A stretch of DNA of 64,000 nucleotides, taken from Acidimicrobiia bacterium. GTDB lineage: Bacteria > Actinomycetota > Acidimicrobiia > Spongiisociales > UBA5794. Positions 9,340 to 46,075 of the stretch are shown here, piece after piece. The notes under the pieces were generated by a model that worked only from the letters and a program-made list of their open reading frames with translations, searched no databases and was not told where the DNA came from. The translations under genes and the position numbers were made by a program. The stretch spans positions 10,750-74,749 of the forward strand of contig JBPCTY010000123.1 in assembly GCA_051011415.1 (NCBI GenBank), read 5' to 3'. How positions within the stretch are numbered: position 1 is the stretch's first letter; the number at the start of each line of letters is the position of its first letter.

Positions 9340-9819
9340 CTACGAGCTAGTGGCGGTCTTCTCGCCCTTTTCCCATACGAAGATCGTCTTTGCAGAAGCG
9401 ACATCTCCGTAGGAAATCGGACGGTCAGTACCGTCGATGGTGAGGGTGAATTCGTCTGAGTCTGCGGCCTTCAAGATGCCGCGGTGGTTCTTGGTTCCAT
9501 CGATCTCGGCGAACGTCTTGACCTTGACGTCGCGACCAATCGATTTCTCGTAATGGCGTGGCCTGCTGAGTTTGCGTTCGAGGCCTGGTGAGGAAACTTC
9601 AAGTGTGTATGAGCCTTTGAACGGATCGTCCTCATCGATGAGACGGCTGATCCCTCGGGACAGGTCTGCGATCACGTCCACTCCAAGCGTGTCATCTGCA
9701 TCGATTGTGACGCGCACGATCTGGCCACCGCCGAGGACCTCGACATCGTCGAGCTCCACGCCTTCGGCCGATACGTACGGATCAATGCGATCCCACAGCT
9801 TTTCAGCGACGCTTGCCAC
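9340..9819 (-). CDS. rimP: ribosome maturation factor RimP
   Basis: ORF 9340..9924 trimmed to the in-frame GTG at 9819, preceded by AAGGAG. Carries YTLEVSSPGLERKL. Sits upstream of nusA. Confidence 0.85.
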   Translation of the reverse strand: MASVAEKLWDRIDPYVSAEGVELDDVEVLGGGQIVRVTIDADDTLGVDVIADLSRGISRLIDEDDPFKGSYTLEVSSPGLERKLSRPRHYEKSIGRDVKVKTFAEIDGTKNHRGILKAADSDEFTLTIDGTDRPISYGDVASAKTIFVWEKGEKTATSS

Positions 9820-9946
9820 CGTGCTCCTTACACACCAATAGAGAGCTCTGCCCAAACAAAGAGGCGGGCCACGGCCCACCTCTGCAGAGATCTCGGTTCG
9901 TTGCAGCGGAGTATACCAGTCCACCGTGGTGGTGGACTTTCCCGGG

Positions 9947-11650
9947 TCAGGCAGTGATGAGTGAAGTGATTTCGGCCAGAGCTTCCGCTAGGGCAACGTC
10001 TTTGCTGTCGCCCGACCGCCGTTCGACCACCTCGCAGTTGCCCTCTTTGACTCCGCGGGGACCGATCGTCACCCGGTATGGGATACCAATGAGTTCAGCG
10101 TCGTTGAACTTGACGCCTGGTCGTTCGTCCCTGTCATCGAGGAGGACCTCTATCCCTGCCTCGTTGAGCGCCTCATAGAGTTCCTCGGCGGCGGCTGCCG
10201 TCGCCTGGTCGTCAGGTCGCACAACGGTGATGATGACCGTAAATGGTGCGATCTCAGCCGGCCACAGGATGCCCTTGTCATCGTGGTTCGACTCGATGGA
10301 CGCAGCCATGTTCCGTTCAACACCGATTCCGTAGGAACCCATGACGATTGGGACCGCCTTGCCGTTCTCGTCAAGAACGCTCACACCGAGAGGGCCCGCA
10401 TAGAACGTGCCGAGCTTGAAGATGTGCCCAACTTCGATCGCAGCAAAGACGCTGAGAGCATGTCCACACACCACGCATAGCTCACCATCAGTGACCGTCC
10501 GCAGGTCGAGCCACTCGTTCACCTCGATATCCCTCTCGACATCCACGTTCCGGACGTGCTTGTCGTTGATGTTCGCTCCAGTGGTCAGCGACGAACGTCC
10601 CTGAAGCGCAACATCGGCATAGATGGGCACATCGGAGACCCCGACAGCACCCAAGCTCCCAGCATCCGCACCAAGCAACGCCTTGATCTCGTCCGCTTGT
10701 GCAGGACGGGCTTCGGCGGCCTTTGTCCCGTCGAGCAGTTTTTGATCCTGGAGAGCGTGATCGCCCCGCATGAGCACAAGCGCCGGTGACCCGTCAAGCA
10801 TGTACACAAGCGTCTTGATCTGTCGGTCAGCCGCGGCGCCACCGTCAAACGTCTCGAGATCGGCGATCGTGCGTACTCCTGGCGTGTCGAACTGCTCGAT
10901 ATCCAGTGAACTGGCGGGATCCTCGACATCTGCGAGTGCCGACGCTGCAGCTTCAACGTTGGCCGAATAGTCACAGTTCTCACAATGGGCCACGAGATCC
11001 TCACCGATCTCGCTCCGCATCATGAACTCGGTCGACTCCTTGCCTCCCATGGCACCGGATGATGCTTGCACCGGGACCACGGACATGCCGAGACGATCGA
11101 ATATGCGGAGGTATGCACGGAAGTGGTTCTCGAACTGGACGTCGAGACCATCGAAGTCGATATCGAACGAGTACGAGTCCTTCATCGTGAACTCTCGCAC
11201 CCGCAGGAGGCCCGACTTTGGCCGTGGTTCATCCCTGTACTTCGTCTGAATGTGGTACCACATCTGTGGAAGCTGCTTGTACGACGTCAGCTCGGTCGAG
11301 ACCGTCGCAAAGATTTCCTCATGGGTCGGGCTCAGAATGACCGGTGAGCCCTTGTTGTCGTCGAACGCCATGATGATGTCGGCCATCGTGTCAATGCGCC
11401 CTGTCTTCTCCCAGATCGATCGAGGATGGAGCTGTGGCAACAGGAATTCCTGGCCGTTGATAGCGTTCATCTCTTCGCGGATGATGCCCATCACCTTCTC
11501 CCTGACTCGCTGGCCAAGGGGCAGCATCGAGTACACACCGGCCATGAGTTGGCGCATGTAGCCACCTCTGACAAGGAGCTTGTGGCTCACGGCTTCGGCG
11601 TCGGTTGGATCGTCGCGAAGGGTGGGGATGAACGCTTGGGACCAGCGCAC
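9947..11650 (-). CDS. proS: proline--tRNA ligase
   Basis: ORF 9947..11809 trimmed to GTG 11650 (VRWSQAFIPTLRDDP, the usual ProRS N-terminus). Longer starts would run into ispG. Confidence 0.93.
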   Translation of the reverse strand: MRWSQAFIPTLRDDPTDAEAVSHKLLVRGGYMRQLMAGVYSMLPLGQRVREKVMGIIREEMNAINGQEFLLPQLHPRSIWEKTGRIDTMADIIMAFDDNKGSPVILSPTHEEIFATVSTELTSYKQLPQMWYHIQTKYRDEPRPKSGLLRVREFTMKDSYSFDIDFDGLDVQFENHFRAYLRIFDRLGMSVVPVQASSGAMGGKESTEFMMRSEIGEDLVAHCENCDYSANVEAAASALADVEDPASSLDIEQFDTPGVRTIADLETFDGGAAADRQIKTLVYMLDGSPALVLMRGDHALQDQKLLDGTKAAEARPAQADEIKALLGADAGSLGAVGVSDVPIYADVALQGRSSLTTGANINDKHVRNVDVERDIEVNEWLDLRTVTDGELCVVCGHALSVFAAIEVGHIFKLGTFYAGPLGVSVLDENGKAVPIVMGSYGIGVERNMAASIESNHDDKGILWPAEIAPFTVIITVVRPDDQATAAAAEELYEALNEAGIEVLLDDRDERPGVKFNDAELIGIPYRVTIGPRGVKEGNCEVVERRSGDSKDVALAEALAEITSLITA

Positions 11651-14203: not shown

Positions 14204-15379
14204 TCAACCACCGCGGATTCGCTCACACGATTGCCGCGCCTGGTCCCGGGACCACCGATCTGCCCCACGCACATCCTCGATCGTCTCGGGTTCGAACACT
14301 TCGTGATCGTCGAGGACTCCCCCAACGACATCCGGGATCGCGACAAACGGAATGTCACCGGACAAAAAGGCCTGCACCGCCACCTCGTCTGCTGCGTTGA
14401 GTACCGCGGTCGCGGTCCCGCCCGCTCGTCCTGCCGCATAGCCAAGGTCGAGGCACGGGAACGCAATGCGGTCAGGGGCTTCAAACGTGAGATCAGCGCC
14501 GATCAGATCCAGCGGAGGATGGTCGCCTTCGATGCGATCAGGAGCCGTAAGCGCGTACTGAATCGGCTTCCGCATGTCGGGGAGACCGACTTCAGCCTTG
14601 ACTACGCCATCAGTAAACTCCACCAGGCTGTGCACGATGCTCTGCGGGTGCACCACGACATCGATGTTGTCGTACGGAATGTCAAACAGATAGTGCGCCT
14701 CGATCACCTCGAACGCCTTGTTCATCAAGGTCGCCGAGTCGGTCGTGATACGTGGGCCCATCGACCACGTTGGATGGTCCAGGGCAGCTTCAACAGTTAC
14801 TCCGGCCAGCTGCTTCTGGCTGAAGCCTCGGAATGGCCCTCCGGAGGCTGTGAGAACCAAGCGAGCGACCGAGCTTGGGCTTTCACCTGTGATGCATTGC
14901 CAGATCGCTGAGTGTTCCGAGTCGACCGGTATCAACTCTCCATCGCCGGTTTCAAGGGCACGGCGAACCAGAGGGCCACCGGCAACAAGGCTCTCCTTGT
15001 TCGCAAGAGCGAGTCGATTACCTGCATACAGCGCTGACAGCGATGCGGCGAGGCCAGCGGCACCGACGACGCCATTGACAACGGTGGAGTCCTTCGTTGC
15101 TGCGACCTCGGTTATCGCACCCTGACCAACATGGAATCTGTCCCCGAGCCGCGATTGGAATTCGTCGACGCGTTCACCCGGATCAACCACGCACACGATC
15201 GCATCGGGATGGGCGTCTGCTTGTGCGAGAAGGGTGTCCGATGCCGTACGGGCAGCGAGCGCCACAACGGGTGCGCCGATACGTGTCGCGACGTCGAGTG
15301 TCTGTCGCCCAATCGAACCGGACGCTCCAAGAACGACGAGGGGGTTCAGAGGATGCCTGCCCAAAGGAAAATCGCCCAC
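14204..15379 (-). CDS. dxr: 1-deoxy-D-xylulose-5-phosphate reductoisomerase
   Basis: The 621-aa longest ORF is an artefactual upstream extension into cdsA. The real protein begins near VGDFPLGRHPLNPLVVLGASGSIGRQTLDV. Candidate starts are GTG 15379 or TTG 15364, so the start is uncertain. Confidence 0.88.
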   Translation of the reverse strand: MGDFPLGRHPLNPLVVLGASGSIGRQTLDVATRIGAPVVALAARTASDTLLAQADAHPDAIVCVVDPGERVDEFQSRLGDRFHVGQGAITEVAATKDSTVVNGVVGAAGLAASLSALYAGNRLALANKESLVAGGPLVRRALETGDGELIPVDSEHSAIWQCITGESPSSVARLVLTASGGPFRGFSQKQLAGVTVEAALDHPTWSMGPRITTDSATLMNKAFEVIEAHYLFDIPYDNIDVVVHPQSIVHSLVEFTDGVVKAEVGLPDMRKPIQYALTAPDRIEGDHPPLDLIGADLTFEAPDRIAFPCLDLGYAAGRAGGTATAVLNAADEVAVQAFLSGDIPFVAIPDVVGGVLDDHEVFEPETIEDVRGADRWSRDQARQSCERIRGG

Positions 15380-17178
15380 GCTGCCGGGATCACGAACAAC
15401 AGCGCATCGATCCGGTCGAGAAACCCGCCGTGTCCGGGCAGGATCGACCCCATGTCCTTGAGATCGAGAGATCTCTTTGCAGCAGACACCGCAAGGTCGC
15501 CGAGCGGTCCAAGAACCGCAACAGCGACGCCAAGCGCGAGGCCAGACGTCAACTCGAACGGTGGGAAGAAATGGAGGGATGCGCCAATTGCGAGGGCAAC
15601 GACGATGCCGCCAACCAGGCCTTCGATCGTCTTCTTGGGTGATATCCATGGCGCAAGCGGGTGGCGGCCCAACGATCGGCCGACGAAGTACTGGGCAATA
15701 TCCATTGCAGCCACGGTTACGACAACGCCCAGGACGAGCGGTCGGTATTCGTCGGACACCGCAATCAGCATCGCATACGCACCGAGCCCGACCCACACCA
15801 TGACGGTGACAGTGAGCGCAAGATTCGCCATGGGGTCCCGCTTCCCCGGCACGACGGCGTAGTACAGCAACAGCACAGTGGTGATTAGCACAAAGGAGAT
15901 CGGGATCGCGATGGCACCCCAGACAAAGGCTCCCACGGTTGCGCCGACGATCCCGATGAACCCGAAGAGCCCGATCGGATGGCGGCCCGTTCGTGCCAGG
16001 GCCGTGTAGAACTCGCCTGCGGCAATAACGAAGACGACCGTCGCAAGCGCCAAGAGCGCAGGCTGCCACAGGAGGCTCGCCACAAGCGCAATGATCAGCA
16101 CGATCGCGGTGATGACCCTGGCAACAAGATCCCCGCCGCGACGAGCGCGCACCTTGCTGTGACCCTCAGCTTCAACGACATCGTCGAAGCCAACGACGGT
16201 TGACTCGAGTCCAGGGATTGGTGCCGCGAGGGCTACCTGCTCGGTGTCCTCGTCGTCGGCATCAGCAATGGCGGCGGCGAGTCCTTGATGTTCCTTGGTT
16301 GCGGTTTGGAGGTAGTCCTCCTGCGTCATGTCGAATGACGATCCACCACCAGCGGATTCTGCCGCTTGATCGTCGGCCGGTGGGTCGGCGGAATCGTCCT
16401 CATCCGCATCCTGGTCCCATAGATCGCCAAACGATGAAGATGCCGCAGCAGCTCCAGCAGCCGCAGCGGGAAACTCGATCACTTCAAGCTCACCGGTGTC
16501 GTCTTCTTCACCCAACTCGTCCTCAGCGGAGCCGTCACCAGTGCCTATGACCGGAATCTCTCCGGTGTGTTCCTCTGAGGACGCATCATCAGAGGGTTCG
16601 TCGTCTGAGGACGCATCGTCTGAGGACGCATCGTCCGAGGATTCATCGTCTGAGGACGCATCATCAGAAGGTTCGTCGTCTGACGGTTCGTCATCAGTTG
16701 CATCGTCATCAACGGCATCGGCATCGGCGGCTGCATCAGTAGCAACCGGATCAGTCGGAGCGTCCTCAACGTCCACCGCCTCCATCTCCACGACAGCATC
16801 GGGGTCATCAAGCGAACCCGGGGTCTCGGCATCATCGAGTGCCTCTGGTGTGTCGTTCGTTACCGATGCAGACACGACGTCAGCGGCAGCGACGATCGGC
16901 ACCTCTTCGGTATCGGGATGACCGCCACCGTCGAACTCGAACGCATCGACGGTCGTTGCGGGGGCAACAACTTCAATCTCTCCGGTCTCATCCCCGTCGT
17001 CAAAGTCGGGGGCAGGTGTCGATGGCTCGCCCTGAGTAAAGGCCATCCAGTCGGAAATCTCTTCCTCTGGGTCGTCGGAATCCAACTCGGCATACGGGTC
17101 GGTGTCCGGACCGGGCTCTTCATCGAGCCAGTCGTCGAAGCCTCCCGAAGAGCCGCCCTTGTTGTCGTCACCGGCCAT
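15346..17178 (-). CDS. cdsA: phosphatidate cytidylyltransferase with ~340-aa polyacidic N-terminal extension
   Basis: The C-terminal ~270 aa form a multi-TM CdsA core ending in GHGGFLDRIDALLF. The ATG at 17178 is 5 nt after the frr stop. No stop codon separates the acidic region from the core. Confidence 0.8.
   Translation of the reverse strand: MAGDDNKGGSSGGFDDWLDEEPGPDTDPYAELDSDDPEEEISDWMAFTQGEPSTPAPDFDDGDETGEIEVVAPATTVDAFEFDGGGHPDTEEVPIVAAADVVSASVTNDTPEALDDAETPGSLDDPDAVVEMEAVDVEDAPTDPVATDAAADADAVDDDATDDEPSDDEPSDDASSDDESSDDASSDDASSDDEPSDDASSEEHTGEIPVIGTGDGSAEDELGEEDDTGELEVIEFPAAAAGAAAASSSFGDLWDQDADEDDSADPPADDQAAESAGGGSSFDMTQEDYLQTATKEHQGLAAAIADADDEDTEQVALAAPIPGLESTVVGFDDVVEAEGHSKVRARRGGDLVARVITAIVLIIALVASLLWQPALLALATVVFVIAAGEFYTALARTGRHPIGLFGFIGIVGATVGAFVWGAIAIPISFVLITTVLLLYYAVVPGKRDPMANLALTVTVMVWVGLGAYAMLIAVSDEYRPLVLGVVVTVAAMDIAQYFVGRSLGRHPLAPWISPKKTIEGLVGGIVVALAIGASLHFFPPFELTSGLALGVAVAVLGPLGDLAVSAAKRSLDLKDMGSILPGHGGFLDRIDALLFVIPAAWAIFLWAGIL
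16571..16720. repeat. 10 tandem units of a 15-nt repeat inside cdsA (consensus tcgtctgaggacgca)
   Basis: Read directly. Units at 16601-16615, 16616-16630 and 16646-16660 are identical and the others are diverged. On the minus strand they encode (S/P)SDD(A/E) pentapeptides. Confidence 0.9.
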
Positions 17179-33711: not shown

Positions 33712-35583
33712 CTACTCGACGACGATGCCCGATTCGATCGGGTCGTACACGGTGTTGCGACGAACCGGTTGACGGTCGAGGTCGAGGATGAGTTCTCGGA
33801 AGCTCACGGCGGTCACCTCTGTGCCGTGTGAGGCCCCCGCTGCTCGTGAAATCGATTCGTCCATGAGCGTGCCACCAACGTCGTTGCAGCCCGAACGCAA
33901 GAGCCCATCAGCACCCTGCAGCCCAAGCTTCACCCAAGAAGCCTGGATATTGTCGATCAAACCAATAAATGCAAGCCGTGCGACGGCATGGACCAGGATG
34001 ACTTCGTCCCACGTGGGCCCGGGGCGTGACTTGCCTCGAAGCCAGAGAGGCGCCCCCATGTGGACAAACGGAAGCGGTACAAACTCGGTGAAACCGCCGG
34101 TGCGTCGCTGGATGTCCTTGAGAACTTCGATGTGGTTTGCCCAGGAGCGAGGTCCGTCCACATGACCAAACATCATTGTGGATGTCGTGCGCAGACCGAC
34201 GTCGTGTGCGGTGAGCATGACCTCAGCCCACTGGCTTGTCCGAATCTTGTCCGGACACAGCGTGAGCCGCACATCATCATCCAAGATCTCCGCAGCGGTC
34301 CCAGGGAGTGTGCCAAGGCCTGCATCCTTGAGTTCGATCAGCAAGTCGCGAATGGTTCGACCTGAGGTCTCGGCTCCCTGCCAGATCTCAAGCGGTGTGA
34401 AGCCGTGGATGTGCATGCCAGGAACCGCGTTCTTCACGCTCTTCACCACATCGACGTAGAAGTCCCCTGTGAAGTCCGGATGGATCCCCCCTTGCAGGCA
34501 GACCTCTGTAGCCCCACGGTCCCACGCCTCGGCGGATCGCTCGGCCACCTCATCGATCGTCATCAGATATGGCTCGCCGCGAAGGTCGAGAGAACGAGGG
34601 CCCTTGGAGAATGCGCAGAAACCGCACTTGAAATAGCACTGGTTCGTGTAGTTGATGTTGCGATTGACGACGAACGTGACGTCGTCGCCGACCGTCGCCC
34701 TCCGGACGATGTCAGCAGCATCTGCGATTGCTTCGACGTCTGCTCCGTGCGCCCCGAACAGCACCTCAACCTCTTCACGGCTGGGGGCGGTTCCGGCAAT
34801 CGCTCGTTCAAGGATGGGCCGTATGGATGGCGAAGCATCGCTGTGCGTCGCGGGATCCGAATCACGCCACATCGTGTCGGTCCACTGCGCAGAGGTCCTC
34901 ACCTCTGAGTTCGGCGGATCCATGTCCCTTCCCGGGGCCCAGATATCACGCGGTCTGGCCCAACCCGAACCATCGATCTGATTGAGGTATGCGGAAAGTG
35001 CACCGCCATCGAGACTGGCCGACGCAGTGTCGAAGTCGATCCCGAGCGGAAACGCGGTTCTCTCTGCAAGCTGAACGTCACCAAGGGCATCGCGAAGCTC
35101 ACCGATCAGGTCGGTATCCCAGTCTCGGAGGACAAGGTCAGCTGCCCCGTTATCGACGGCTGCAAGTGCGTCTGCAACTGTGTCCACCATTGTTGACACC
35201 TTCGTATCAAGGCCGGGGAGATCGACCATCGAGACGGCTGCTGCGACGCTGCTCCGACCCGTGCGGAGATACGCGGCTCGCGTGAACGCGACAGCATCGA
35301 TGACATCCATGGGAGTGCCGTCGTCGGTGATGGTGATTCTCCATCCAGCAACTCCCCCACTACTGAGTTTTCCTACGGCGGCTGGAGTTACCGCGTACGC
35401 GGGCGCTTCGACGCTGTGGTCGCCTGAGACAATCATCAGACCACCCTTGAGCGCTCCCTCGACATCATCAGGGGTCGGTGAGGCGACCTCAACGGCGAGG
35501 GTGCCCTCCTTGCGCCGAGTCGATGCCCAAATCTCGTTCACCGTGTCGGCAGGTCTGAGCTGAAGGAACGTGATCTGCTTCAT
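33712..35583 (-). CDS. cofH: FO synthase subunit 2 (CofH, radical SAM) with ~250-aa N-terminal extension
   Basis: 623 aa. Carries VGDDVTFVVNRNINYTNQCYFKCGFCAF (CxxxCxxC) and a C-terminal half typical of the CofH/FbiC C-domain (GGFTEFVPLPFVH, NDVGGTLMDESISRAAG). I do not recognise the first ~250 aa. Confidence 0.85.
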   Translation of the reverse strand: MKQITFLQLRPADTVNEIWASTRRKEGTLAVEVASPTPDDVEGALKGGLMIVSGDHSVEAPAYAVTPAAVGKLSSGGVAGWRITITDDGTPMDVIDAVAFTRAAYLRTGRSSVAAAVSMVDLPGLDTKVSTMVDTVADALAAVDNGAADLVLRDWDTDLIGELRDALGDVQLAERTAFPLGIDFDTASASLDGGALSAYLNQIDGSGWARPRDIWAPGRDMDPPNSEVRTSAQWTDTMWRDSDPATHSDASPSIRPILERAIAGTAPSREEVEVLFGAHGADVEAIADAADIVRRATVGDDVTFVVNRNINYTNQCYFKCGFCAFSKGPRSLDLRGEPYLMTIDEVAERSAEAWDRGATEVCLQGGIHPDFTGDFYVDVVKSVKNAVPGMHIHGFTPLEIWQGAETSGRTIRDLLIELKDAGLGTLPGTAAEILDDDVRLTLCPDKIRTSQWAEVMLTAHDVGLRTTSTMMFGHVDGPRSWANHIEVLKDIQRRTGGFTEFVPLPFVHMGAPLWLRGKSRPGPTWDEVILVHAVARLAFIGLIDNIQASWVKLGLQGADGLLRSGCNDVGGTLMDESISRAAGASHGTEVTAVSFRELILDLDRQPVRRNTVYDPIESGIVVE

Positions 35584-36716
35584 GTCGGCACCGTCTCCGG
35601 AATGTCTGCATACCCACGCGCATCACTGCGATCCAGGAGATCTGGGCGCATATTCGGGTCAATCCACTTCTCGCTGAGATACTCGGGGTACACGGGGAGT
35701 CGAGGCACCAATGAGAATCCCTGCGATTCCGTCACGGACCTGAGCGTGTCGAGGTGCGGCCAGGGAGCCTCTGGGTTCACCCAGTCGATCGTCACGGGGC
35801 TCACACCACCCCAGTCATTGATCCCCGCGTCGAGGTACACGCCGAAGTCCTCTGTGAGATTTGGAGGAACCTGGATGTTGGCCTCCGGTCCGAGGATCCA
35901 CCGAGCCGCAGCGACAACCTTCACAAAGTAGGAGATCTCGGGCTCGGGCGCATTCCGCATTCTTGTGTGGATCTTCGCCCTGAAGTTCTGGATGATGAAC
36001 TCTTGGATATGGCCGGATTCCGTTGCGAGGTCTGCCAGCGCAAACAGGCTGTCGACGACCTCATCTGGAGTCTCCCCGATGCCGACGAGGATTCCGCTCG
36101 TAAACGGAACGTTGAGGTCACCTGCCGCCCGAATCGTCGCGACGCGCACGTCGGGATCCTTGTCCGGACAGTTGTGATGCGGCATCCCTGGTTCGAGAAG
36201 CCTGGGTGAGATGTTCTCCAGCATCAGACCCATTGATGGGCTCACCGGACGCAGCAGCGCAATGTCTTCATGCGTCAGGTTGCCTGGGTTTGCGTGCGGG
36301 AAGAGCCCGGTTTCGCTCCTGATCAACTCCGCCATCTCTGCGACGTAGTCGATCGTCGTCGCGCAGCCCTGTGCGTCGAGGAATTGTTGGGCCTGGGGCC
36401 ACTTGTCTTCTGGTTTATCTCCCAGGGTCAACAGGGCTTCCGTGCAATCGAAGGTGTCGCCCGCACGCACGATGGCCAGTACGTCTTCGGGCGAAAGGTA
36501 CTCCCCACCTCCGCCGGGCGGTTTGACGAACGTGCAATACGTGCAGGTGTCCCTGCACAGTGTCGTGATCGGAACGAACACCTTGCGCGAGTATGTGATG
36601 GTCCGTCCGTGGGCCTCGTCCCGAAGCCGCGCAGCCTCGGCCATGAGCGGGGCGGCATCGCGCGCACCCGTCAGGAACTCAATGGCAAGCCCGCGGTCGG
36701 GTGAGGGAAATGGCAT
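35580..36716 (-). CDS. cofG: FO synthase subunit 1 (CofG, radical SAM)
   Basis: 378 aa. Carries TYSRKVFVPITTLCRDTCTYCTF and GHIQEFIIQNFRAK, as in the CofG/FbiC N-domain. ATGA overlap with cofH. Confidence 0.88.
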   Translation of the reverse strand: MPFPSPDRGLAIEFLTGARDAAPLMAEAARLRDEAHGRTITYSRKVFVPITTLCRDTCTYCTFVKPPGGGGEYLSPEDVLAIVRAGDTFDCTEALLTLGDKPEDKWPQAQQFLDAQGCATTIDYVAEMAELIRSETGLFPHANPGNLTHEDIALLRPVSPSMGLMLENISPRLLEPGMPHHNCPDKDPDVRVATIRAAGDLNVPFTSGILVGIGETPDEVVDSLFALADLATESGHIQEFIIQNFRAKIHTRMRNAPEPEISYFVKVVAAARWILGPEANIQVPPNLTEDFGVYLDAGINDWGGVSPVTIDWVNPEAPWPHLDTLRSVTESQGFSLVPRLPVYPEYLSEKWIDPNMRPDLLDRSDARGYADIPETVPT

Positions 36717-36766: not shown

Positions 36767-38161
36767 TTAGGTCGAGGCGACCTCGGTCGGTAGCCCCTCG
36801 GCGTCGGGAATCTCGGTCTCAAGATTCCGCAACGGGCCATACAGATATGCGAGGCCGCTCATCACAATGGTGTAAACGCCGATCGCCGCAAACATCGCCG
36901 CATATCCTGCTCTCTCGCCAGTGCCGAACAGACCCTGCGCCCACTCACCCAGGTCGCTGTCGCCGGACAGCAGGGGCACGAACACCTTGTCCGCGAGCGG
37001 ACCGGCAATTGCGAGCGCCAGCGGTTGGGTTCCTTGTGCGATGAGGGACCGCACACCAAACACACGACCCTGCACATCTGGTTCGACCTTTGACATCCAA
37101 ATCGATTGGCTCATGGCAGTTGCAATCGGCACGACAAACATCCCGATCCAAAGTGTTCCAACGATGACGACGATCCACGTAGAGAAACCAATGACCAGCA
37201 GCATCGCTCCCAGAACCACCGTGGACAGCATGATGCCTGCGACCCTTCGGGAGGTGACCTTGCGCGCAGACGCCACGATCGATCCAACCAGCATGCCGGT
37301 GGCACCGAGTGACAGCACCGTCCCCATCGTCGCCTCGGACGCCCACGACAACATGTAGGCGATGAACACTGGCGAGATCAGCCCGAAGGTGAGGTTGAGC
37401 ATCGCAAAGAAGATCAGCAAGGCGAACAACCCGTGCCGGTGCCACAGGTACGTGAATCCGAACGCCGACTCCTTCCAGATGCTGCCCTTGGACGCCTCGC
37501 CCACTTCGGACTTCGGGGGCTTTGGAAATCGCACGATGGCCAGCGTGAAAACTGCAAAGAGGAATGTGGCCACATCGACGGCAAGCAAGGTTGCCACGCC
37601 ACCGAACGCGATGAGCACGCCACCGAGAAACGGGGCCACGAGTTGCCCGGCTGCTTCGGCCATCTGGACCATGCCTGAGGCCTGGGAATAGCGCTCCTTG
37701 GGCACCAGCATCGTGGTTGCGGCTTGGTAAGCCGGCCACTGGAACGCCTGGAACGCGCTGGCGAAGGCTCCGACGACAACCAGCACACCGAGTGAAGCGG
37801 TGCCGGTCATGAACGCGACAACGATGACCAGTGTGCCGACACCCGTCAGCGCGTCCGCTCCGAGCATGACCCAGCGTCGGTCCCAGCGGTCGACATAGGC
37901 ACCCGCAATCGGCGAGAGGAGGATCCGCGGCAGCGTCGAAGCCAAGAGCATCACCGAAAGCGCTGTCACTGATCCCGTCTCGAGGAAGACCCAGACGGAC
38001 AGGCCGAACCACGTCAGCGAGCTCCCGATCAGAGAGACCAGCTGGCCGGACCAAACGATCAGGAAGGTCCGAAAATGGCCTTCATCGTTGCTGGTAGGTG
38101 CATCTGTGGCTGGAGAAATATCGGGCTCGGCCGTGTGTTGGGATTCGGTCATGACGCACAT
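36767..38161 (-). CDS. MFS transporter (EntS/DUF894-like exporter type)
   Basis: About 12 TM segments, with GAYVDRWDRRWVM after TM2. The start is uncertain: ATG 38161, ATG 38152 or TTG 38188. Confidence 0.8.
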   Translation of the reverse strand: MCVMTESQHTAEPDISPATDAPTSNDEGHFRTFLIVWSGQLVSLIGSSLTWFGLSVWVFLETGSVTALSVMLLASTLPRILLSPIAGAYVDRWDRRWVMLGADALTGVGTLVIVVAFMTGTASLGVLVVVGAFASAFQAFQWPAYQAATTMLVPKERYSQASGMVQMAEAAGQLVAPFLGGVLIAFGGVATLLAVDVATFLFAVFTLAIVRFPKPPKSEVGEASKGSIWKESAFGFTYLWHRHGLFALLIFFAMLNLTFGLISPVFIAYMLSWASEATMGTVLSLGATGMLVGSIVASARKVTSRRVAGIMLSTVVLGAMLLVIGFSTWIVVIVGTLWIGMFVVPIATAMSQSIWMSKVEPDVQGRVFGVRSLIAQGTQPLALAIAGPLADKVFVPLLSGDSDLGEWAQGLFGTGERAGYAAMFAAIGVYTIVMSGLAYLYGPLRNLETEIPDAEGLPTEVAST

Positions 38162-38162
38162 T

Positions 38163-38178
38163 GTCGGGATTTCCCGAC
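38163..38178. promoter_or_regulatory. perfect 16-bp palindrome gtcggga-tt-tcccgac in the MFS / lipoprotein divergent region
   Basis: Read directly. It has 7-bp arms and a 2-nt spacer. It lies 1 nt upstream of ATG 38161 of the MFS gene and 55 nt upstream of the lipoprotein ATG. Confidence 0.4.
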
Positions 38179-38232
38179 CATATGTCAAATCCTGAACGGA
38201 GATGATGCCTCCGCATCGGTACAGTCACCGTC

Positions 38233-39099
38233 ATGCGTTGGTGGACCGCACTCATTCTCTTGGCCCTTCTGGCTTCGGCGTGCACGCCCCAAGCCACTCC
38301 CACAACCACTTCCCCCCCGGCCAACGAGACGACGACCACCGTTGCCGCACCAGAAGGCGATCCATGCCGTTCAGGTGATCTTGCGTTTGGAACCGATGGC
38401 CTGATTGCTGCCCTCGGCGAGGAGAACCCGGATGTCACGAAGCTCTCGCAGATCCGGTGGGAGGGCTCCGCATCATGTGAGCGGCTGGTCGTCGGCTTCA
38501 CAACCGACACCGGCGCACCCGCTGCCAGGCTTGGGCTCACCGGAGTCACCATCCTCGGCTATGCCGGCATCGTTCGGATTGATCTGCCAAGCGAGATCAC
38601 CGAGAGCGCAGTCGCTGACATGTGGACCGATGCTGAGCTCGTCGATCGCACATTCGTGACCAGAGATGAAGAAGGCAACCTGCGCATTGACGTGCACATG
38701 GCTCCCGGTATCGCCATTGAGGCGCGGGCCTTCACCGCATCATCTCCCGCAAGCTTGATCATCGATGTCGCTCCACGTCCGGATCTCACTCCGCCGGTCC
38801 CGGCAGCAACGTCGGCGAGTGCGGTAATCGTTACTCCTCAGTCGGGGCCTTCGCTGTATCCCTTCACAGTGGAGGCATATGCCCCGCCCGCCCAGTTCTC
38901 GACCCACGTGCTGGTGACTTCGAATGAGGTCATCGCCTCCAGTGTCTCGGTGGCCCTCAAGGGCTACACAGATACATGGCAGTCTTTTTCCCTGCGTGTT
39001 GATGACGGGCCGAGTGGCCCAACCACGGTGTTCGTTGGAGAGATCAACAGCTCCGGTGGCCCAGCGAATGGCGCGACCGTGCTCCTGGATCTTCCGTGA
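38233..39099 (+). CDS. putative secreted lipoprotein (AMIN-like plus Ig-like/Gmad2-like regions)
   Basis: 288 aa. Has a lipobox signal MRWWTALILLALLASAC and a Thr/Pro linker. Domain resemblance is by eye only. Confidence 0.5.
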   Translation: MRWWTALILLALLASACTPQATPTTTSPPANETTTTVAAPEGDPCRSGDLAFGTDGLIAALGEENPDVTKLSQIRWEGSASCERLVVGFTTDTGAPAARLGLTGVTILGYAGIVRIDLPSEITESAVADMWTDAELVDRTFVTRDEEGNLRIDVHMAPGIAIEARAFTASSPASLIIDVAPRPDLTPPVPAATSASAVIVTPQSGPSLYPFTVEAYAPPAQFSTHVLVTSNEVIASSVSVALKGYTDTWQSFSLRVDDGPSGPTTVFVGEINSSGGPANGATVLLDLP

Positions 39100-39154
39100 G
39101 CGACCGGAACACACCACGACTAGTTTCGGTTTGTCGTTCGGGAAGGAAGACGCC

Positions 39155-41086
39155 GTGGATCGAAAACCGACATGGTTCCGTGTAGCTGATCTTGACAGCC
39201 TCGCCATAGGCGAAGTCACGGTAGTCCAAGCAGGCCATCACGCCGTCGCCTTATCCCATACAGAAGAAGGGCTCGGTGCAATCTCCAATCGGTGCCCCCA
39301 TCAAGGCGGACCCCTCGGCGAGGGCCTGATTGAGGGATGCTGGTTGACCTGCCCATGGCACGGTTGGGAGTACGACCCGAAGACCGGCGAGACACCCGGT
39401 CCGTTTGACGATGCGGTTGCCTCCTACGCAGTCGAGGAGAGGGACGACGGAATCTACGTCGCCGTCGTTGAACCCGTCGAACACCCCGATTCATTAATGA
39501 CTCAACTGGTGGACAGGCTTGTCGTCGGTGGTGTCCGCGTAGTCTTCGGAATGGTCGGACACTCAAATCTCGGATTTGCGGACGCTCTTCGCGCCGCGGA
39601 GCAACGAGGAGACCTCGCGTTCATCGGGGTCAGGCACGAAGGCGCGGCCGCGTTTGCGGCATCGTCCTATGGAAAGCTCACGGGGACGCCAGCGGTGGCG
39701 TTTGCGATCGCGGGCCCCGGAGCTACCAATCTCTACACCGGAATGTGGGACGCCAAGCTCTCCGGCACGCCCCTGCTCGCTGTCACCGGCCAGATTCCGA
39801 CACCGCAGCTTGGAACGCGAGCGTTCCAGGAGGTTCCGCTCGGAAGCGCATTGGGGCCGGTCGCCGGCTGGACAAAGCGTATGTCCGCGAGCGATGGCCC
39901 CAGAGTGGCGTCCGACATGGTCGATTTTGCCGTGAGTCAGAACGATGTTGCACATCTAGTCCTGCCTGACGATGTTCAAACTCTGCCATCGGTCATCGCA
40001 TCACCGCCTGGACCGCGTCCGCATCACAACCCTCTCCCCCTCGCTGATGCCGATACAACAGCCATTGCGCAGATGATCGACCAAGCCGAGAACCCTCTCT
40101 TTGTCGTTGGTCGAGGCGGTGCCCCCTACGCACACGAGATCCTGACGCTTGCTGAGAAGGTCGACGCAGTTATCGCGACGACCTTCCCCGCCAAAGGATG
40201 TGTAGACGAACACCACGAGCTCGCAACCGGTGTCCTGGGAAGATCAGGTACGCCGGTCTCGGCCGCAATGCAAACACGAAGCGATCTGGTCGTCGTCTTC
40301 GGCGGCGGCTTGGCTCCACATACCGGTATCTCACCAAAGCGACCGGTTGTGCGGATCGATACCAACGAGCTTGCCTCGCGTCGGAACACTTCGAACGTGA
40401 CCGTATTCGCACTGGCGGACGCAGGAGCTGCAGCTACAGCGTTACTAGACGAGGTGAGTCCCGCTAACCGCAGCGACCTTCGCTCATGGCTTGCCGACCG
40501 GAAGGCTTGGTGGGCGCAAAGGAAGACCGACAGGCGGGGACTCGACCGAGATGGCAGGCTCACCGGCGCCGGTGTGTTCCATGAACTCGAGCAACAGATA
40601 CCGCGCGATGCCGTCGTCTCGCTTGATGTCGGCAACACCACGTACTCGTTTGGTCGCTACTTCGAGGCCACAGCGCAGCGTGTCGCCATGAGTGGTTGGC
40701 TTGGCTCGATCGGATATGCGTTGCCGGGATCAATCGGCGCAGCGATGGCGTTCCCCGACCGCACGATTGTTGCCATTGCCGGGGATGGTGGTTTCGGGCA
40801 GTACGCAATGGAACTCGCAACTGTGGCGAAGTATGAGCTCAATGTGAAAGTCCTGGTTCTCGTCAACGACGAGCTTGGGAAGATCACCGCTGAACAACAG
40901 CTTGCGCAAACCCATGTTTGGGCCACTTCACTGTCGAACCCTTCATTCGCAGACATGGCATCGTCGCTCGGCATGTTCGGGCGGGCGGTCTCGACACCAC
41001 AGGAGCTAGAAGTTGGGATGGCCGACCTCTTCGCCCACGATGGGCCTGGCATGCTCGAAATCGCAAGCTCGCGGCTGCAGTACTGA
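39155..41086 (+). CDS. Rieske [2Fe-2S] domain fused to a PoxB/acetolactate-synthase-type thiamine-diphosphate enzyme
   Basis: ORF 38924..41086 trimmed to GTG 39155, behind GGAAGGAAGA. It has the Rieske boxes CPHQGGPL and CPWHGW, followed by the ThDP N-domain GPGATNLYTG and the C-terminal ThDP motif IAGDGGFGQYAMEL...VLVNDELG. Confidence 0.8.
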   Translation: MDRKPTWFRVADLDSLAIGEVTVVQAGHHAVALSHTEEGLGAISNRCPHQGGPLGEGLIEGCWLTCPWHGWEYDPKTGETPGPFDDAVASYAVEERDDGIYVAVVEPVEHPDSLMTQLVDRLVVGGVRVVFGMVGHSNLGFADALRAAEQRGDLAFIGVRHEGAAAFAASSYGKLTGTPAVAFAIAGPGATNLYTGMWDAKLSGTPLLAVTGQIPTPQLGTRAFQEVPLGSALGPVAGWTKRMSASDGPRVASDMVDFAVSQNDVAHLVLPDDVQTLPSVIASPPGPRPHHNPLPLADADTTAIAQMIDQAENPLFVVGRGGAPYAHEILTLAEKVDAVIATTFPAKGCVDEHHELATGVLGRSGTPVSAAMQTRSDLVVVFGGGLAPHTGISPKRPVVRIDTNELASRRNTSNVTVFALADAGAAATALLDEVSPANRSDLRSWLADRKAWWAQRKTDRRGLDRDGRLTGAGVFHELEQQIPRDAVVSLDVGNTTYSFGRYFEATAQRVAMSGWLGSIGYALPGSIGAAMAFPDRTIVAIAGDGGFGQYAMELATVAKYELNVKVLVLVNDELGKITAEQQLAQTHVWATSLSNPSFADMASSLGMFGRAVSTPQELEVGMADLFAHDGPGMLEIASSRLQY

Positions 41087-41094
41087 CACCGCAG

Positions 41095-44000
41095 CTACAT
41101 GTTTCGGCGGTAGCGGCCCCCCACCTCGAACAGAGCGTCTGACAACTGACCAAGTGAGCAGTGACGAGTCGCATCCATCAACGCCGCAAAAACGTTGCCG
41201 CCGTCGAGCGCCACCTGCTGGAGGGCGGTTAACGCAGCCTCGGCGTCCTTATCGGATCGTTCGTGGAGGAACGCGACATCCTCGATCAGCTGGTCCTTGT
41301 CCTCGTCATGGGAACGGATGATTTCGTCCGGGCGCATAAACGGAGAACCCTCAGGAGACAGGAACGTGTTGACGCCGATGATGGGAAGATCACCGCTGTC
41401 CTTGCTGGTTTCATACCGCATGGACTCTTCCTGGATCTTCGAACGCTGGTACATGGTCTCCATCGCTCCGAGAACACCACCGCGGTCCGTCAATCGGTCG
41501 AACTCCGCCATCACGGCTTCCTCAACAAGATCCGTGAGCTCTTCGATGATGTAGGAGCCCTGAAGCGTGTTCTCTGTCTTGTTGAGGCCAAGCTCCCGGT
41601 TGATGATCAGCTGGATCGCCAACGCACGACGCACGGATCCCTCCGTAGGTGTTGTGATCGCTTCGTCAAAGGCGTTGGTGTGGAGGCTGTTTGCGTTGTC
41701 GTAGATGGCGTAGAGAGCTTGAAGCGTCGTGCGGATGTCGTTGAATTCGATCTCTTGTGCGTGCAAGGACCGGCCAGACGTCTGGATGTGGTACTTCAGC
41801 TTCTGGGACCGCTCTCCGGCGCCATACATGTCACGCATCGACTTTGCCCAGATGCGTCGAGCAACTCTGCCGATGACGGCGTATTCAGCATCGAGACCGT
41901 TGCTGAAGAAGAAGCTGAGGTTGGGTGCGAAGCCATCGACATCCATCCCTCTCGCCCTGAAGTATTCGACGAACGTGAAGCCATTGGCGAGCGTGAACGC
42001 AAGCTGGGTGATGGGGTTCGCACCAGCCTCGGCCATGTGGTAACCCGAGATCGAGACCGAGTAGAAGTTCGTGACATCGTGATCGATGAAGTACTGCTGG
42101 ATGTCCCCCTGCATCGACAGCGCAAACTCAGTCGAAAAGATGCAGGTGTTCTGGGCCTGATCCTCTTTGAGAATGTCCGCTTGGATCGTGCCACGGACTG
42201 TTGCAAGGGTCTCGGCCTTCAGACGGTCATAGATGTCGGGAGGAAGCACGTCGACTCCGGTGACACCGAGCAGCAGGAGTCCTGTTCCGTCGTGCCCATC
42301 TGGGAGGGCTCCGTGATAGCGAGGTCTGGCCTCCGGGTTCTCCACATACCGCTGCGCAATCATCGCCTCGACTTCTTCGACCAGTCCTTCGGTGCGGATA
42401 TACCGCTCGCAGGCCTGATCGATCGCTGCGTTGAGGAAGAAGGCAAGCATCATCGGCGCAGGGCCGTTGATGGTCATGGACACCGACGTTACTGGATCCA
42501 GGAGATCGAAACCTGAGTAGAGCTTCTTGGCATCATCGAGTGTGGGAACGGAGACACCGGAGTTGCCAACCTTGCCGTAGATATCGGGGCGTAGCGCGGG
42601 ATCATTGCCGTACAAGGTGACCGAGTCGAAGGCTGTGGAGAGCCGCACAGCCGGCATGTCCTTGGCCAGGTAGTGGAACCTTCGATTCGTCTGCTCCGGA
42701 CCGCCTTCTCCAGCAAACATCCGGGTGGGATCCTCAGCCTCGCGTTTGAACGGAAACACGCCTGCGGTGAATGGGAACCGTCCAGGTAGGTTCTCCTGAC
42801 AAAGCCATCGCACGCGGTCACCCCAACCACTGATCCGTGGATGGACGACCTTCGGAAAAGTGGTACCGGACAGCGTGGTGACCTCGTTCTCCACCACGAC
42901 ATCTCTTCCTCGGACGGTGTAGGTGACCTCGGTGCCCTCGTATTCGGCCACATTGCCTTCCCACGCCTCGAGCGCTGCGGCTGTCCGATCGGACAAGCCT
43001 TCCTGCGCTCGGCTGACAATCTCAGGAGGTGCAGGCGTGTCGGTGAGAATCGAAGCTCTCTCGAGACTCTGCAGATCTGCAGCACTCCTGGCCTCAGCCT
43101 CGGTCGCAACGTTGTATGACCGCACGGTGTCGGCAATCTCAGAGAGATACCTGACACGCGAACGTGGCACGAGCGGTTCGGTAGTGGTTCGGCCAGTGCG
43201 GTGCACTGCGCGCCCGAATCGGCCATCGACACTGTCGTTGACCGCCTCGATGATCAACTCATATAGACGCTGCGTACCGTCGTCGTTGAACTGTGAGGCG
43301 ATCGTCGCCACGACGGGAAGGGATGCGTCGTCGGCGTCAAAGAGCTGGCGGTTTCGCTTGAACTGCTTACGAACGTCGCGCAGGGCGTCCTCTGCACCCC
43401 GTCGATCAGACTTGTTGATCGCAATGACCTCGGCGAAGTCGAGCATGTCGATCTTCTCAAGTTGCGTTGCGGCCCCATATTCGGGCGTCATGACGTACAC
43501 CGAGATGTTGGAGGCGTCGACGATTTCCGTGTCCGACTGACCGATGCCGGAGGTTTCGAGCAGCACAAGATCGAAACCTGCTGCCTTGACGATGGAAACC
43601 GCATCAGCAACGTACGGGGACATGGCGAGATTTGCTTGCCGTGTGGCGAGGGACCGCATGTAGGTCGCGGTGCCGCTGACCGCATTCATCCGGATCCGGT
43701 CGCCGAGAAGGGCACCGCCGGTACGGCGGCGACTCGGGTCGACAGACACAACTGCGATTTTCTTGTCCGGGAAGTCTCGACGGAATCGGAGGACGAGTTC
43801 GTCAAGAATCGAAGACTTCCCTGCTCCACCTGTCCCTGTGAATCCAACGACAGGCACCGATGTCTCGGAAGCTGCGGCCCGGAGCTCCTCAAGGAGACCA
43901 GCGCTCTCCTCGGGCTCGTTCTCTGCAAGGGTGATTGCTCGTGCGATGGCGGAGGGCTCCGCTGCGAGTACCCGTGCAGCCACATCCCCGGCGCCAAGTG

Positions 44001-44665: not shown

Positions 44666-46075
44666 ATGTTCGAGAGAATCGATATTGTAGAACGAGATTC
44701 CGATCCTGGCCCGATGTTCGAGCCAGGTGGTCCGGCGATCGGTGTCGATCGACTCCAGCCGGTGACAGACGTGGCGTGCCCAGCGGTCGATCAACGGGCT
44801 CCAGATGGCATCACGGCACTCTTCGTAGATTCGGTCGATCTTGGAGGCGTCTCTGGCGCCGACGCTGTCCGGGTGCTCAAGGCCGCACAACGCCTTGCGT
44901 CGCACTATCAGGCTCGGATGTATGAGGCGATGGCCGCGATCTCCCGGAACCTCGACGAGGGAGGGGACGCCATTGAGGATCTCCTGCTCCGAGCCGAAGG
45001 CGAGATCCGGCCGGCCCTCACGTGGACGCGGCGTCGCACCGAGGAAGAGCTCGCGTTTGCCCAACGGCTGTCAAGCAGGTTGCCGCGGGTCTTCTCGGCG
45101 TTGCGTGCAGGACTCATCGATGTCCCCAAGGCAAAGGCGATGGACAGGGCAACAATTCACCTCCAGCCATCTGTCGCTCAAGCCCTGATTGAACAGGTCA
45201 TTGACGACGCTCCCGACCTCACAACGGGACAGCTATCGGGACGTCTTGGCAAGATCGTCGCCAATCACGATCCGGATGAAGCAAAGGACCGCTACCACGC
45301 GGCACACCAGGACCGGCGCGTCGTGATCGAGCGGACCGACGCTGGCACGGCCAACTTCCACGCATTCGACATCGCACCTGACGATGCCGCCTCTCTCTCC
45401 CGCCGGCTGTCGGTTCTATCGATGCAAACGTCCACACCCGATGATCCACGCAGTACAGATCAAAGGAAAGCTGACCTTGCCGTGGAGCTGATGATGGATC
45501 GTCCGCTGACACGCTTCGGCGCACCCAACAAGCACGATGGCGCATCACGATCCGGCACCGCAACGGGCCAACGCGGGTCCGGGAGCACCGTCACCCTGTA
45601 TGTCGATCTCGACACGCTCGCCGGCCTCAACGACAACTCGGCCGAGCTCGCAGGATTTGGCCCGGTGATCGCCGACATCGCAAGGAAGGTCGCTGCCGAA
45701 TCAGCCGTCGCCGAGTGGAGATACCGAGTCACCGATCCGCTGACCGGCAAGGCAGTCGCCGCCGGCACGACACGTCGCAGACCGACGGCCGCACAATGTC
45801 GGGACATCACCGACCGACACACGACATGCGTCTTCTCTGGCTGCAGAATGCCCTCCACCGAGTCGGATCTGGACCACCGCATCGAATTCGCCGAGACCGG
45901 CGTCACCGATCCCAACGACATGGCACCCCTCTGTCGGCACGATCATCGGATCAAGGGCACCCAGGGGTTCACGTATGTGCTCAACCCAGACGGAAGTGTC
46001 ACGTGGACCACTCCTCTACGCCAGCGATACACCATCCACCCTGATGGACGAACCACAGAGGGCCCGGCGCCGTAG
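44666..46075 (+). CDS. DUF222-domain HNH endonuclease (REP13E12-like family)
   Basis: 469 aa. The N-terminal DUF222-like region reads GADAVRVLKAAQRLASHYQARMYEAMAAI. The C-terminal HNH motif is CVFSGCRMPSTESDLDHRIEFAETGVTDPNDMAPLCRHDHRIK. The start may instead be the second ATGTTCGAG at 44714. Confidence 0.8.
   Translation: MFERIDIVERDSDPGPMFEPGGPAIGVDRLQPVTDVACPAVDQRAPDGITALFVDSVDLGGVSGADAVRVLKAAQRLASHYQARMYEAMAAISRNLDEGGDAIEDLLLRAEGEIRPALTWTRRRTEEELAFAQRLSSRLPRVFSALRAGLIDVPKAKAMDRATIHLQPSVAQALIEQVIDDAPDLTTGQLSGRLGKIVANHDPDEAKDRYHAAHQDRRVVIERTDAGTANFHAFDIAPDDAASLSRRLSVLSMQTSTPDDPRSTDQRKADLAVELMMDRPLTRFGAPNKHDGASRSGTATGQRGSGSTVTLYVDLDTLAGLNDNSAELAGFGPVIADIARKVAAESAVAEWRYRVTDPLTGKAVAAGTTRRRPTAAQCRDITDRHTTCVFSGCRMPSTESDLDHRIEFAETGVTDPNDMAPLCRHDHRIKGTQGFTYVLNPDGSVTWTTPLRQRYTIHPDGRTTEGPAP

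Follow-up and report, generated by a model that had tools for sequence, protein, structure and literature searches.

The DNA considered here, hereafter the window, is a stretch of 64,000 nucleotides (nt) from contig JBPCTY010000123.1, assigned to an Acidimicrobiia bacterium. The gene in question encodes a protein of 643 residues that joins an N-terminal Rieske [2Fe-2S] module to an enzyme with the domains of the thiamine diphosphate (ThDP) family (Table 1). According to the list of open reading frames (ORFs) and the translation, no stop interrupts the 643 codons of 39155-41086, and the product is identical to database protein P0001. Pfam profiles for Rieske, TPP_enzyme_N, TPP_enzyme_M, and TPP_enzyme_C follow one another along this frame, all above their gathering scores, in agreement with a first-pass annotation, made from the sequence alone, that had read a single ORF fusing a Rieske domain to a ThDP enzyme. 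The motifs it quoted (NRCPHQGGPL, CPWHGWEY, GMVGHSNLGFADAL, GPGATNLYTG, and IAGDGGFGQYAMEL...VLVNDELG) are likewise all present. The frame remains open upstream as far as 38924, a stretch that overlaps the upstream gene; this overlap, the Shine-Dalgarno-like run GGGAAGGAAG, and the N-termini of homologues support a start at 39155. The GC content is the same in both halves of the gene, with values at third codon positions of 0.644 and 0.650.

By its sequence, the N-terminal part is a complete soluble Rieske ferredoxin of the T4moC/CarAc/BphF type, a group known to shuttle single electrons from a flavoprotein to an acceptor. Pfam Rieske covers residues 6-80 (E 9.6e-16, 57.9 bits against a cut-off of 20.3) and Rieske_2 residues 6-102 (33.7 bits against 27), and the module is all beta-strand in an AlphaFold2 model. 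In a sequence search of the PDB, the first 113 residues align with soluble Rieske ferredoxins from end to end; T4moC ranks first (E 2e-13, residues 4-101 of 111), ahead of CarAc, the NDO ferredoxin, and BphF, while Rieske proteins of bc1 and b6f complexes match only marginally (E > 0.03). The ligand pattern is C47-x-H49-x16-C66-x2-H69, in which the 16 residues from His49 to Cys66 represent the canonical Rieske spacing; the first-pass annotation was thus correct in calling the spacing normal, but the 17 residues it counted between the quoted boxes are in fact 11. The boxes CPHQGG and CPWHG lack a second Cys and hence the disulfide cysteines of the bc1 type. All four ligands align with those of T4moC and, together with the flanking Q50-G-G-P-L-G55 and P67-W68, are invariant in an alignment of 81 homologues with 46-80% identity to the query, so the Cys and His residues do occupy Rieske positions.

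The two parts are connected by a conserved linker, VEPVEHPDSL, of which E106, H110, and L114 hardly vary between clades sharing 47% identity, and the junction residues E106, H110, L114, M115, and Q117 are invariant or nearly so in independent assemblies. The AlphaFold2 model (mean predicted local distance difference test, pLDDT, 89.2; predicted TM-score, pTM, 0.88) gives the linker a pLDDT of 83-93, and these linker values and the pTM suggest a connection that is fixed rather than floppy.

The remainder of the protein has the PYR-middle-PP order of pyruvate oxidases (POX), with the catalytic Glu and a Mg-binding motif of the form GDG-x(24-27)-N(N). Invariant in the 81 homologues are the ThDP-activating Glu162 within R160-H-E-G, the FQE motif (F224-Q225-E226), the GPGATN loop, the Mg/diphosphate motif, and, in the middle domain, G319-x-G321, V360-L-G-R-S-G365 (including L361 and R363-S-G365), G383, H389-T390, and D402, as well as K576-I577 and E580-Q581 of the PP domain. 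In Foldseek comparisons, the core of the model superposes on acetohydroxyacid synthase (AHAS), Lactobacillus plantarum POX, the pyruvate:quinone oxidoreductase (PQO) of C. glutamicum, and E. coli PoxB, and the highest target-normalised TM-score (0.90) is obtained with 3eya, the C-terminally truncated, activated form of PoxB. E. coli PoxB aligns at 28% identity (PoxB residues 17-529 with query residues 126-640), and E. coli AHAS I is the top full-length match by E-value in both the PDB sequence search and Foldseek. No PDB chain in either search covers both the Rieske and the ThDP parts. Among the NCBIfam models, the best match is pyruvate oxidase PRK08611 (310 bits against a cut-off of 742), followed by PRK06546 (243 against 893), TIGR02720 (242 against 638), and PRK09124 (220 against 792), and none, including all ALS models, reaches its cut-off. 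The PoxB and POX profiles are matched only to about position 530 of about 575.

Table 1 Coordinates of the Rieske-ThDP fusion gene and its features in the window, followed by genes for Rieske-GltS-type proteins at other loci that carry the fusion (locus:positions)
Feature	Position	Strand	Remarks
Whole gene, Rieske-ThDP fusion protein, 643 residues	39155..41086	+	GTG start, TGA stop at 41084-41086
Shine-Dalgarno-like GGGAAGGAAG	39139..39148	+	6-15 nt before GTG; read from sequence
Rieske [2Fe-2S] ferredoxin module, residues 6-104	39170..39466	+	Pfam, PDB match, AlphaFold2 fold
Ligand box 1, Cys47-Pro-His49	39293..39301	+	Codons TGC CCC CAT
Ligand box 2, Cys66-Pro-Trp-His69	39350..39361	+	Codons TGC CCA TGG CAC
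Conserved linker VEPVEHPDSL, residues 105-114	39467..39496	+	Alignment, model
PYR domain, TPP_enzyme_N, residues 115-226	39497..39832	+	Pfam
ThDP-activating Glu162	39638-39640	+	Invariant; aligned with PoxB Glu50
Middle (nucleotide/FAD-type) domain, TPP_enzyme_M, residues 303-430	40061..40444	+	Pfam
PP domain, TPP_enzyme_C, residues 491-636	40625..41062	+	Pfam
Mg/diphosphate motif G543-D-G-G546...N571	40781-40867	+	Invariant
Invariant K576, at PoxB Phe465 position	40880-40882	+	Alignment
C-terminus, 7 residues past PP domain	41063..41083	+	PoxB/POX-type tail absent
Upstream co-oriented gene, 288 residues	38233..39099	+	Signal-peptide/lipoprotein-like
Rieske-GltS-type gene	L002:10052-11683	+	
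Rieske-GltS-type gene	L018:4371-5981		
Rieske-GltS-type gene	L013:1438-3039		
Rieske-GltS-type gene	L025:8042-9658		
Rieske-GltS-type gene	L010:9002-10633		
Rieske-GltS-type gene	L054:3589-5181		
Rieske-GltS-type gene	L034:3300-4865		
Rieske-GltS-type gene	L059:1-1389	-	
Rieske-GltS-type gene	L019:4249-5805	-	
Rieske-GltS-type gene	L042:4236-5729	-	
Rieske-GltS-type gene	L053:548-2014	-	

The same four-domain architecture is found in 112 of the 120 best clusters at 90% identity, drawn from NCBI, JGI, ENA, and Logan assemblies, with lengths of 643-667 residues; the other eight are shorter (421-590 residues) and are apparently truncated at the N-terminus. When one genome per GTDB species was scanned, 41 loci matched nearly the whole query, from a start no later than its residue 7 to an end at residues 636-643. 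All 41 genomes are metagenome-assembled genomes (MAGs), and they span about ten phyla: Actinomycetota (mostly Acidimicrobiia), Chloroflexota, Bacteroidota, Gemmatimonadota, Planctomycetota, Acidobacteriota, Chlorobiota, Fidelibacterota/Marinimicrobia, and Alphaproteobacteria, along with one Heimdallarchaeota MAG. Maintenance across these genomes and phyla argues that the fusion is under selection. In the Candidatus Heimdallarchaeota MAG, a full-length Rieske-ThDP gene of 45% identity sits on a 7.7-kb contig (L009), and this archaeal copy could reflect lateral transfer or a binning contaminant. Nothing beyond its prior probability speaks for an artefact of assembly or gene calling that joined separate genes for a Rieske ferredoxin and a ThDP enzyme; a few database relatives lack the Rieske part (P0061-P0067, P0072, P0131, P0144, and P0156), but these look like truncated or frameshifted gene calls. 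The continuous frame recurs in the 112 clusters and in the 41 genomes, the linker is conserved, and codon composition is identical on either side of the junction, which leaves an artefact hardly credible; it was rejected for this wide recurrence and compositional continuity. Source databases name the proteins "thiamine pyrophosphate-binding protein", "pyruvate oxidase", or "Rieske 2Fe-2S domain-containing protein". That every genome is a MAG probably explains why the family has gone unstudied; no curated family for the architecture was found, nor any description of it in the literature searched for such fusions. The first-pass annotation had recognised no characterised enzyme of this kind, and none emerged from the curated families, the PDB, or the literature searched.

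The nearest relatives of the ThDP core, collected by an exhaustive search of 1.84 billion representatives followed by Pfam scans, indicate what the N-terminal module may do. Where the Rieske domain is missing, a rubredoxin takes its place at the N-terminus, in P0127 and P0129 at 40-41% identity and in P0133, P0142, and P0146 at 32-34%; the hosts of these rubredoxin versions are anaerobes (Dehalococcoidia, Methanomicrobiales, and ANME-2). A further protein of 873 residues, P0124, places two CDGSH [2Fe-2S] domains and a Fer4_19 [4Fe-4S] domain ahead of a Rieske-ThDP unit. It amounts to four predicted clusters on one polypeptide, encoded on an ENA contig of 15,969 nt, and is a single-member cluster that rests on one sequence; the N-terminus of P0143 shows a CDGSH-like motif. 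In a neighbour-joining tree of the ThDP cores (528 columns, 200 bootstraps), all Rieske-fused proteins form a clade with P0127 and P0129 (200/200). Its full-length members all bear an N-terminal one-electron metal-binding domain, be it Rieske, rubredoxin, or CDGSH + Fer4_19 + Rieske, so that these domains are interchangeable on one core, and the few members without one look like truncated or frameshifted gene calls. The second rubredoxin group (P0133, P0142, and P0146) forms a separate clade with unfused relatives (135/200), and the two fused groups appear as sisters in only 30/200 replicates, from which it follows that a metal-binding domain was acquired at least twice.

The opposite end of the protein differs from PoxB as well. 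All fused proteins, and the close unfused relative P0130, end within 0-3 residues of the C-terminus of the fusion protein, whereas PoxB and POX-type representatives run 40-42 residues further, a stretch that in PoxB constitutes the lipid-binding, autoinhibitory tail. Since the fused proteins end without this tail, the gain of an N-terminal one-electron carrier goes together with the absence of the membrane/quinone outlet. Both the exchangeable carriers (rubredoxin, or CDGSH, Fer4_19, and Rieske) and the missing tail favour the idea, already voiced in the first-pass annotation, of a built-in, different electron outlet, through which electrons would flow from the enzyme. Apart from the fused proteins, twelve proteins of ~1000-1190 residues (P0138, P0147, P0158, P0179, P0180, P0193, P0200, P0222, P0239, P0250, P0251, and P0260) match the ThDP core in at least two stretches and are apparently tandem double ThDP-enzyme modules; many of them begin MQAN(R/K)H..., which suggests a family.

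In the tree, the fused clade joins the PoxB/POX-type sequences in a group that leaves out E. coli IlvI (199/200). This placement bears on a different kind of function, in which the protein would be a non-redox carboligase or lyase in the manner of AHAS, glyoxylate carboligase (GCL), or cyclohexanedione hydrolase (CDH), its flavin would be vestigial, and the Rieske domain would serve as a redox or O2 sensor or as a regulatory or structural module. Several flavin-containing members of the fold do carry out reactions without net redox chemistry, GCL and CDH are among the structures matched by the middle domain, the Phe that transfers electrons in PoxB is replaced by Lys, and the best E-values among full-length matches belong to AHAS I. 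Yet the core lies outside the IlvI group, and no gene for an AHAS regulatory subunit (ACT/ALS small subunit) is nearby in the window or at loci L001-L003; phylogeny and context thus led to the rejection of AHAS membership, which the AHAS I match had raised. In addition, repeated N-terminal swaps to other one-electron carriers, including a chain of four clusters, are hard to square with a sensor, and the metal-binding domain was gained where the PoxB outlet was lost. Overall, a carboligase appears unlikely.

Whether the middle domain holds flavin adenine dinucleotide (FAD) is central to any redox function. The segment V360-L-G-R-S-G365 aligns with residues 250-255 of PoxB, of which residues 251-254 (UniProt P07003) are presumably in contact with FAD; POX and AHAS retain this segment, whereas oxalyl-CoA decarboxylase (Oxc), which binds only ADP, has a deletion here. 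Used alone as a query, the middle domain matches FAD-binding POX, GCL, CDH, PQO, and AHAS I, with L. plantarum POX as the best match (STYPAKG versus TTFPAKG), and no FAD-free or ADP-binding members are among the matches listed; two further ones are BbmA and a cytochrome c555 entry, the latter spurious. The conserved loops and the matched structures thus favour FAD in this domain, where its occupancy would be expected. The literature searched yielded no residue-level data on the flavin site. A flavin-free alternative is conceivable, in which the middle domain would bind ADP or nothing and the [2Fe-2S] cluster would oxidise the enamine directly in one-electron steps, possibly to acyl-CoA, by a radical mechanism resembling that of pyruvate:ferredoxin oxidoreductase (PFOR). 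Like the clusters of PFOR, Rieske and rubredoxin domains can carry electrons only one at a time, and Lys at position 576 removes the ThDP-to-FAD bridge of PoxB. However, the invariant VLGRSG loop on the flavin side is exactly the segment deleted in Oxc, the matched structures bind FAD rather than ADP or no cofactor, and the N-terminal domain would have to come within ~14 Å of the buried C2 of ThDP, which nothing suggests. Such a mechanism therefore seems quite improbable.

The function proposed for the fusion is that of a soluble 2-oxoacid:Rieske-ferredoxin oxidoreductase, in which electrons would run from ThDP to FAD, on to the [2Fe-2S] cluster, and out to an external protein acceptor; a rough probability of 0.55 is assigned to this reading. 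In the first step, ThDP, activated by Glu162 and held at the GDGG...N Mg site, would decarboxylate a small 2-oxoacid to a hydroxyalkyl-ThDP enamine. The cofactor-binding residues for this step are intact, and pyruvate is the default guess for the substrate. Two electrons would then pass to FAD in the middle domain, the route taken by POX, PoxB, and PQO, and the flavin would hand them on singly to the N-terminal Rieske module, whose ligands are intact. Finally, the Rieske module would reduce the external protein acceptor, replacing the O2 outlet of POX and the quinone outlet of PoxB, and the acyl-ThDP would be released as an acid, an acyl phosphate, or an acyl-CoA. In effect, the protein may be a reductase-ferredoxin fusion whose reductase half is fed by a 2-oxoacid instead of NAD(P)H.

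Several points weigh against this proposal. The residue aligned with PoxB Phe465 is an invariant Lys576, and this Phe (Phe479 in L. plantarum POX) we take to be the aromatic residue that bridges ThDP and FAD. The scores lie far under every curated POX/PoxB cut-off (310 versus 742 bits for the best), which leaves room for a different substrate or even a different class of reaction. The tree of the cores was built by neighbour-joining only. Lastly, there is no acceptor gene conserved across the family and no candidate acceptor in the window.

The direction of electron flow could also be reversed, with the Rieske module as an inlet that keeps the flavin reduced or activated or that drives a reductive reaction at ThDP. 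The first-pass annotation left the direction open, and the Rieske domain of a protein encoded next to the fusion at other loci, described below, is most plausibly an inlet. Rieske ferredoxins and rubredoxins have rough potentials of -150 to 0 mV, and reductive ThDP chemistry requires about -500 mV or lower; by this textbook estimate, these carriers are far too oxidising for reductive carboxylation or acyl reduction at ThDP, and the characterised redox members of the fold all run oxidatively. An inlet role is therefore considered very unlikely.

The surroundings of the gene in the window offer little guidance to its function. The 288-residue gene upstream, whose product matched no Pfam family, ends 55 nt before the fusion gene, and the two may be co-transcribed. 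Downstream, the gene for IcmF (B12-binding, MeaB, and MM_CoA_mutase domains) converges on the fusion gene, with the stop codons 8 nt apart. A promoter/terminator scan of 38000-41400 was uninformative: it gave no terminator-like site and a single promoter-like one, which lies on the minus strand and belongs to the gene for a transporter of the major facilitator superfamily (MFS). Further neighbours in the window are CofH and CofG (FO synthase), the MFS transporter, a DUF222/HNH gene, rimM, and ffh, the wider window consists of housekeeping genes, and no other Rieske, cytochrome, or P450-type gene is present in it. Only the close Acidimicrobiia relatives L001, L005, and L006 share this synteny, including the 288-residue gene directly upstream, and Chloroflexi loci have unrelated neighbours. 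The 55-nt gap and the convergent icmF had been described correctly in the first-pass annotation, but this arrangement, confined to close relatives, is not informative on function, and a function derived from the lipoprotein-like gene, the MFS transporter, CofG/CofH, or IcmF was rejected on these grounds.

A neighbour that recurs across phyla was found by all-versus-all clustering of the neighbouring ORFs at 45 loci. It is the sole one, a gene for a protein of ~540 residues with an N-terminal Rieske domain and a glutamate-synthase-type flavin mononucleotide (FMN) domain, referred to as Rieske-GltS-type, which keeps the C-x5-C-x4-C-P [3Fe-4S] motif and lacks the amidotransferase domain; the other recurrent clusters are shadow ORFs or generic MFS, ABC, and histidine-kinase genes. 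It lies within ~2 kb of the fusion gene at 11 of the 45 loci, in Chloroflexota, Bacteroidota, and Actinomycetota. At L002, L013, L018, and L025, the two genes are immediate neighbours on one strand, separated by 20-100 nt; the fusion gene occupies 8001-9953 at L002 and 6001-7941 at L018. The window has no copy of the Rieske-GltS-type gene, and a stand-alone one occurs in a Methanosarcinales MAG (L069:5814-7367). The recurrence of the fusion beside another Rieske-fused flavoenzyme would support the proposed oxidoreductase. It could be speculated that the two proteins form a self-contained redox couple that uses neither pyridine nucleotide nor free ferredoxin, in which the Rieske module of the ThDP enzyme would dock with that of the GltS-type protein and oxidative decarboxylation of a 2-oxoacid such as pyruvate would directly power a reductive step, either the reductive amination that turns 2-oxoglutarate into glutamate or a similar reaction. 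Such a couple is doubtful, but if it existed, N-terminal Rieske, rubredoxin, and CDGSH domains would more broadly act as plugs in a modular protein-to-protein electron network that links flavoenzymes of uncultured aerobes and anaerobes.

The rubredoxin-fused relatives (loci L087-L090) have redox-flavoured neighbours that do not converge on one partner. The Dehalococcoidia gene adjoins a downstream peroxiredoxin gene and thioredoxin-like genes, and the ANME-2 gene follows co-oriented NiFe-hydrogenase-like, Fer4, and FrhB/FdhB-type genes. In the window, CofH-like and CofG-like genes (33712-36716, minus strand), a pair forming FO synthase for F420, lie 2.4 kb upstream of the fusion on the opposite strand and are conserved in L001; the CofH-like protein has 623 residues, with a long N-terminal extension before its radical-SAM domain. 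Together with the FrhB-type F420 flavoprotein gene beside the ANME-2 relative, this may point to a link with F420, or it may be coincidence.

Several further observations concern the annotation of the window. The DUF222/HNH-endonuclease gene (44666-46075, plus strand) lies between icmF and rimM and looks like a mobile-element-type insertion, as IcmF is followed directly by RimM in L001. Conversely, L001 has genes for a DUF2277 protein and an abhydrolase/guanylate-cyclase between the fusion gene and IcmF that are absent from the window. The listed ORFs for dxr (14204-16069) and cdsA (15346-17178), both on the minus strand, overlap and carry N-terminal extensions of ~240 and ~350 residues before their Pfam domains, and their true starts are probably far downstream. 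CxxCH motifs at 14204-16165 lie in the extension of the dxr ORF and are spurious.

Compared with known systems, the fusion protein would follow PoxB, PQO, and POX as far as the flavin and behave like a reductase-ferredoxin fusion from there on. PoxB and PQO, peripheral membrane enzymes with ThDP and FAD that use quinone as acceptor, share the three-domain fold (Foldseek target-normalised TM-scores 0.80-0.90) and the same side of the tree relative to AHAS; PoxB also shares 28% core identity, the catalytic Glu, GDGG...N, the FQE motif, and the flavin-side loops. Unlike PoxB, the fusion protein lacks the ~40-residue C-terminal lipid-binding/autoinhibitory tail, and hence any evident membrane or quinone outlet, has gained a Rieske ferredoxin, and carries Lys for Phe465, and it scores far below the PoxB/PQO family cut-offs (220-310 versus 742-893 bits). 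L. plantarum POX, which contains ThDP and FAD and forms acetyl phosphate, resembles it in the middle domain and in the I-x-x-E-Q after the Mg-binding Asn (by what we take to be the POX numbering). It differs in having a C-terminal extension and no Fe-S domain, in passing electrons to O2 to give H2O2, and in its Phe479, the equivalent of which is Lys in the fusion.

The ferredoxins T4moC, CarAc, BphF, and that of NDO are alike in ligand pattern, in full-length similarity, and in the absence of the bc1-type disulfide. These proteins of ~110 residues are free-standing and are reduced by NAD(P)H-dependent flavoprotein reductases, whereas the present module is covalently joined to a ThDP enzyme and has no evident oxygenase partner. 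In reductases of the phthalate dioxygenase reductase type, a flavin splits the electrons of a two-electron donor into one-electron steps for an attached [2Fe-2S] cluster, which is analogous to what is proposed for the fusion; these reductases draw on NADH as donor, bear a cluster of the plant-ferredoxin type, and have unrelated folds. With PFOR and other 2-oxoacid:ferredoxin oxidoreductases, only the proposed job is shared, i.e., ThDP-dependent oxidative decarboxylation with an Fe-S outlet to a protein acceptor. Their architecture (POR domains, [4Fe-4S] clusters, no flavin) is unrelated, no POR or Fer4 Pfam domains occur in the fusion protein, and the ferredoxin reduced by PFOR has a low potential, far below that of a Rieske ferredoxin. 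The fusion would be a functional analogue of PFOR assembled from FAD and [2Fe-2S], cofactor types found in aerobic enzymes.

The protein is neither a categorically new system nor an already known enzyme. It departs from characterised POX-type enzymes in three features, namely the curated scores, the tail, and the bridging Phe, and it is not an AHAS, which makes it a candidate for a new, uncharacterised subfamily of POX-type ThDP flavoenzymes. As the family spans about ten phyla and yet is known only from MAGs, it marks a blind spot in annotation. If it works as proposed, it could provide Rieske-ferredoxin-dependent oxygenases with 2-oxoacid-driven reducing power in biocatalysis. To our knowledge, O2 or a membrane quinone is the electron acceptor of the ThDP/flavin 2-oxoacid oxidases characterised so far with this fold, and a covalently wired Fe-S cluster would, if confirmed, be a third outlet in a well-studied fold and an oxygen-compatible counterpart of PFOR on a different scaffold. 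The exchange of Rieske, rubredoxin, and CDGSH domains on one core represents a natural experiment in the evolution of electron outlets.

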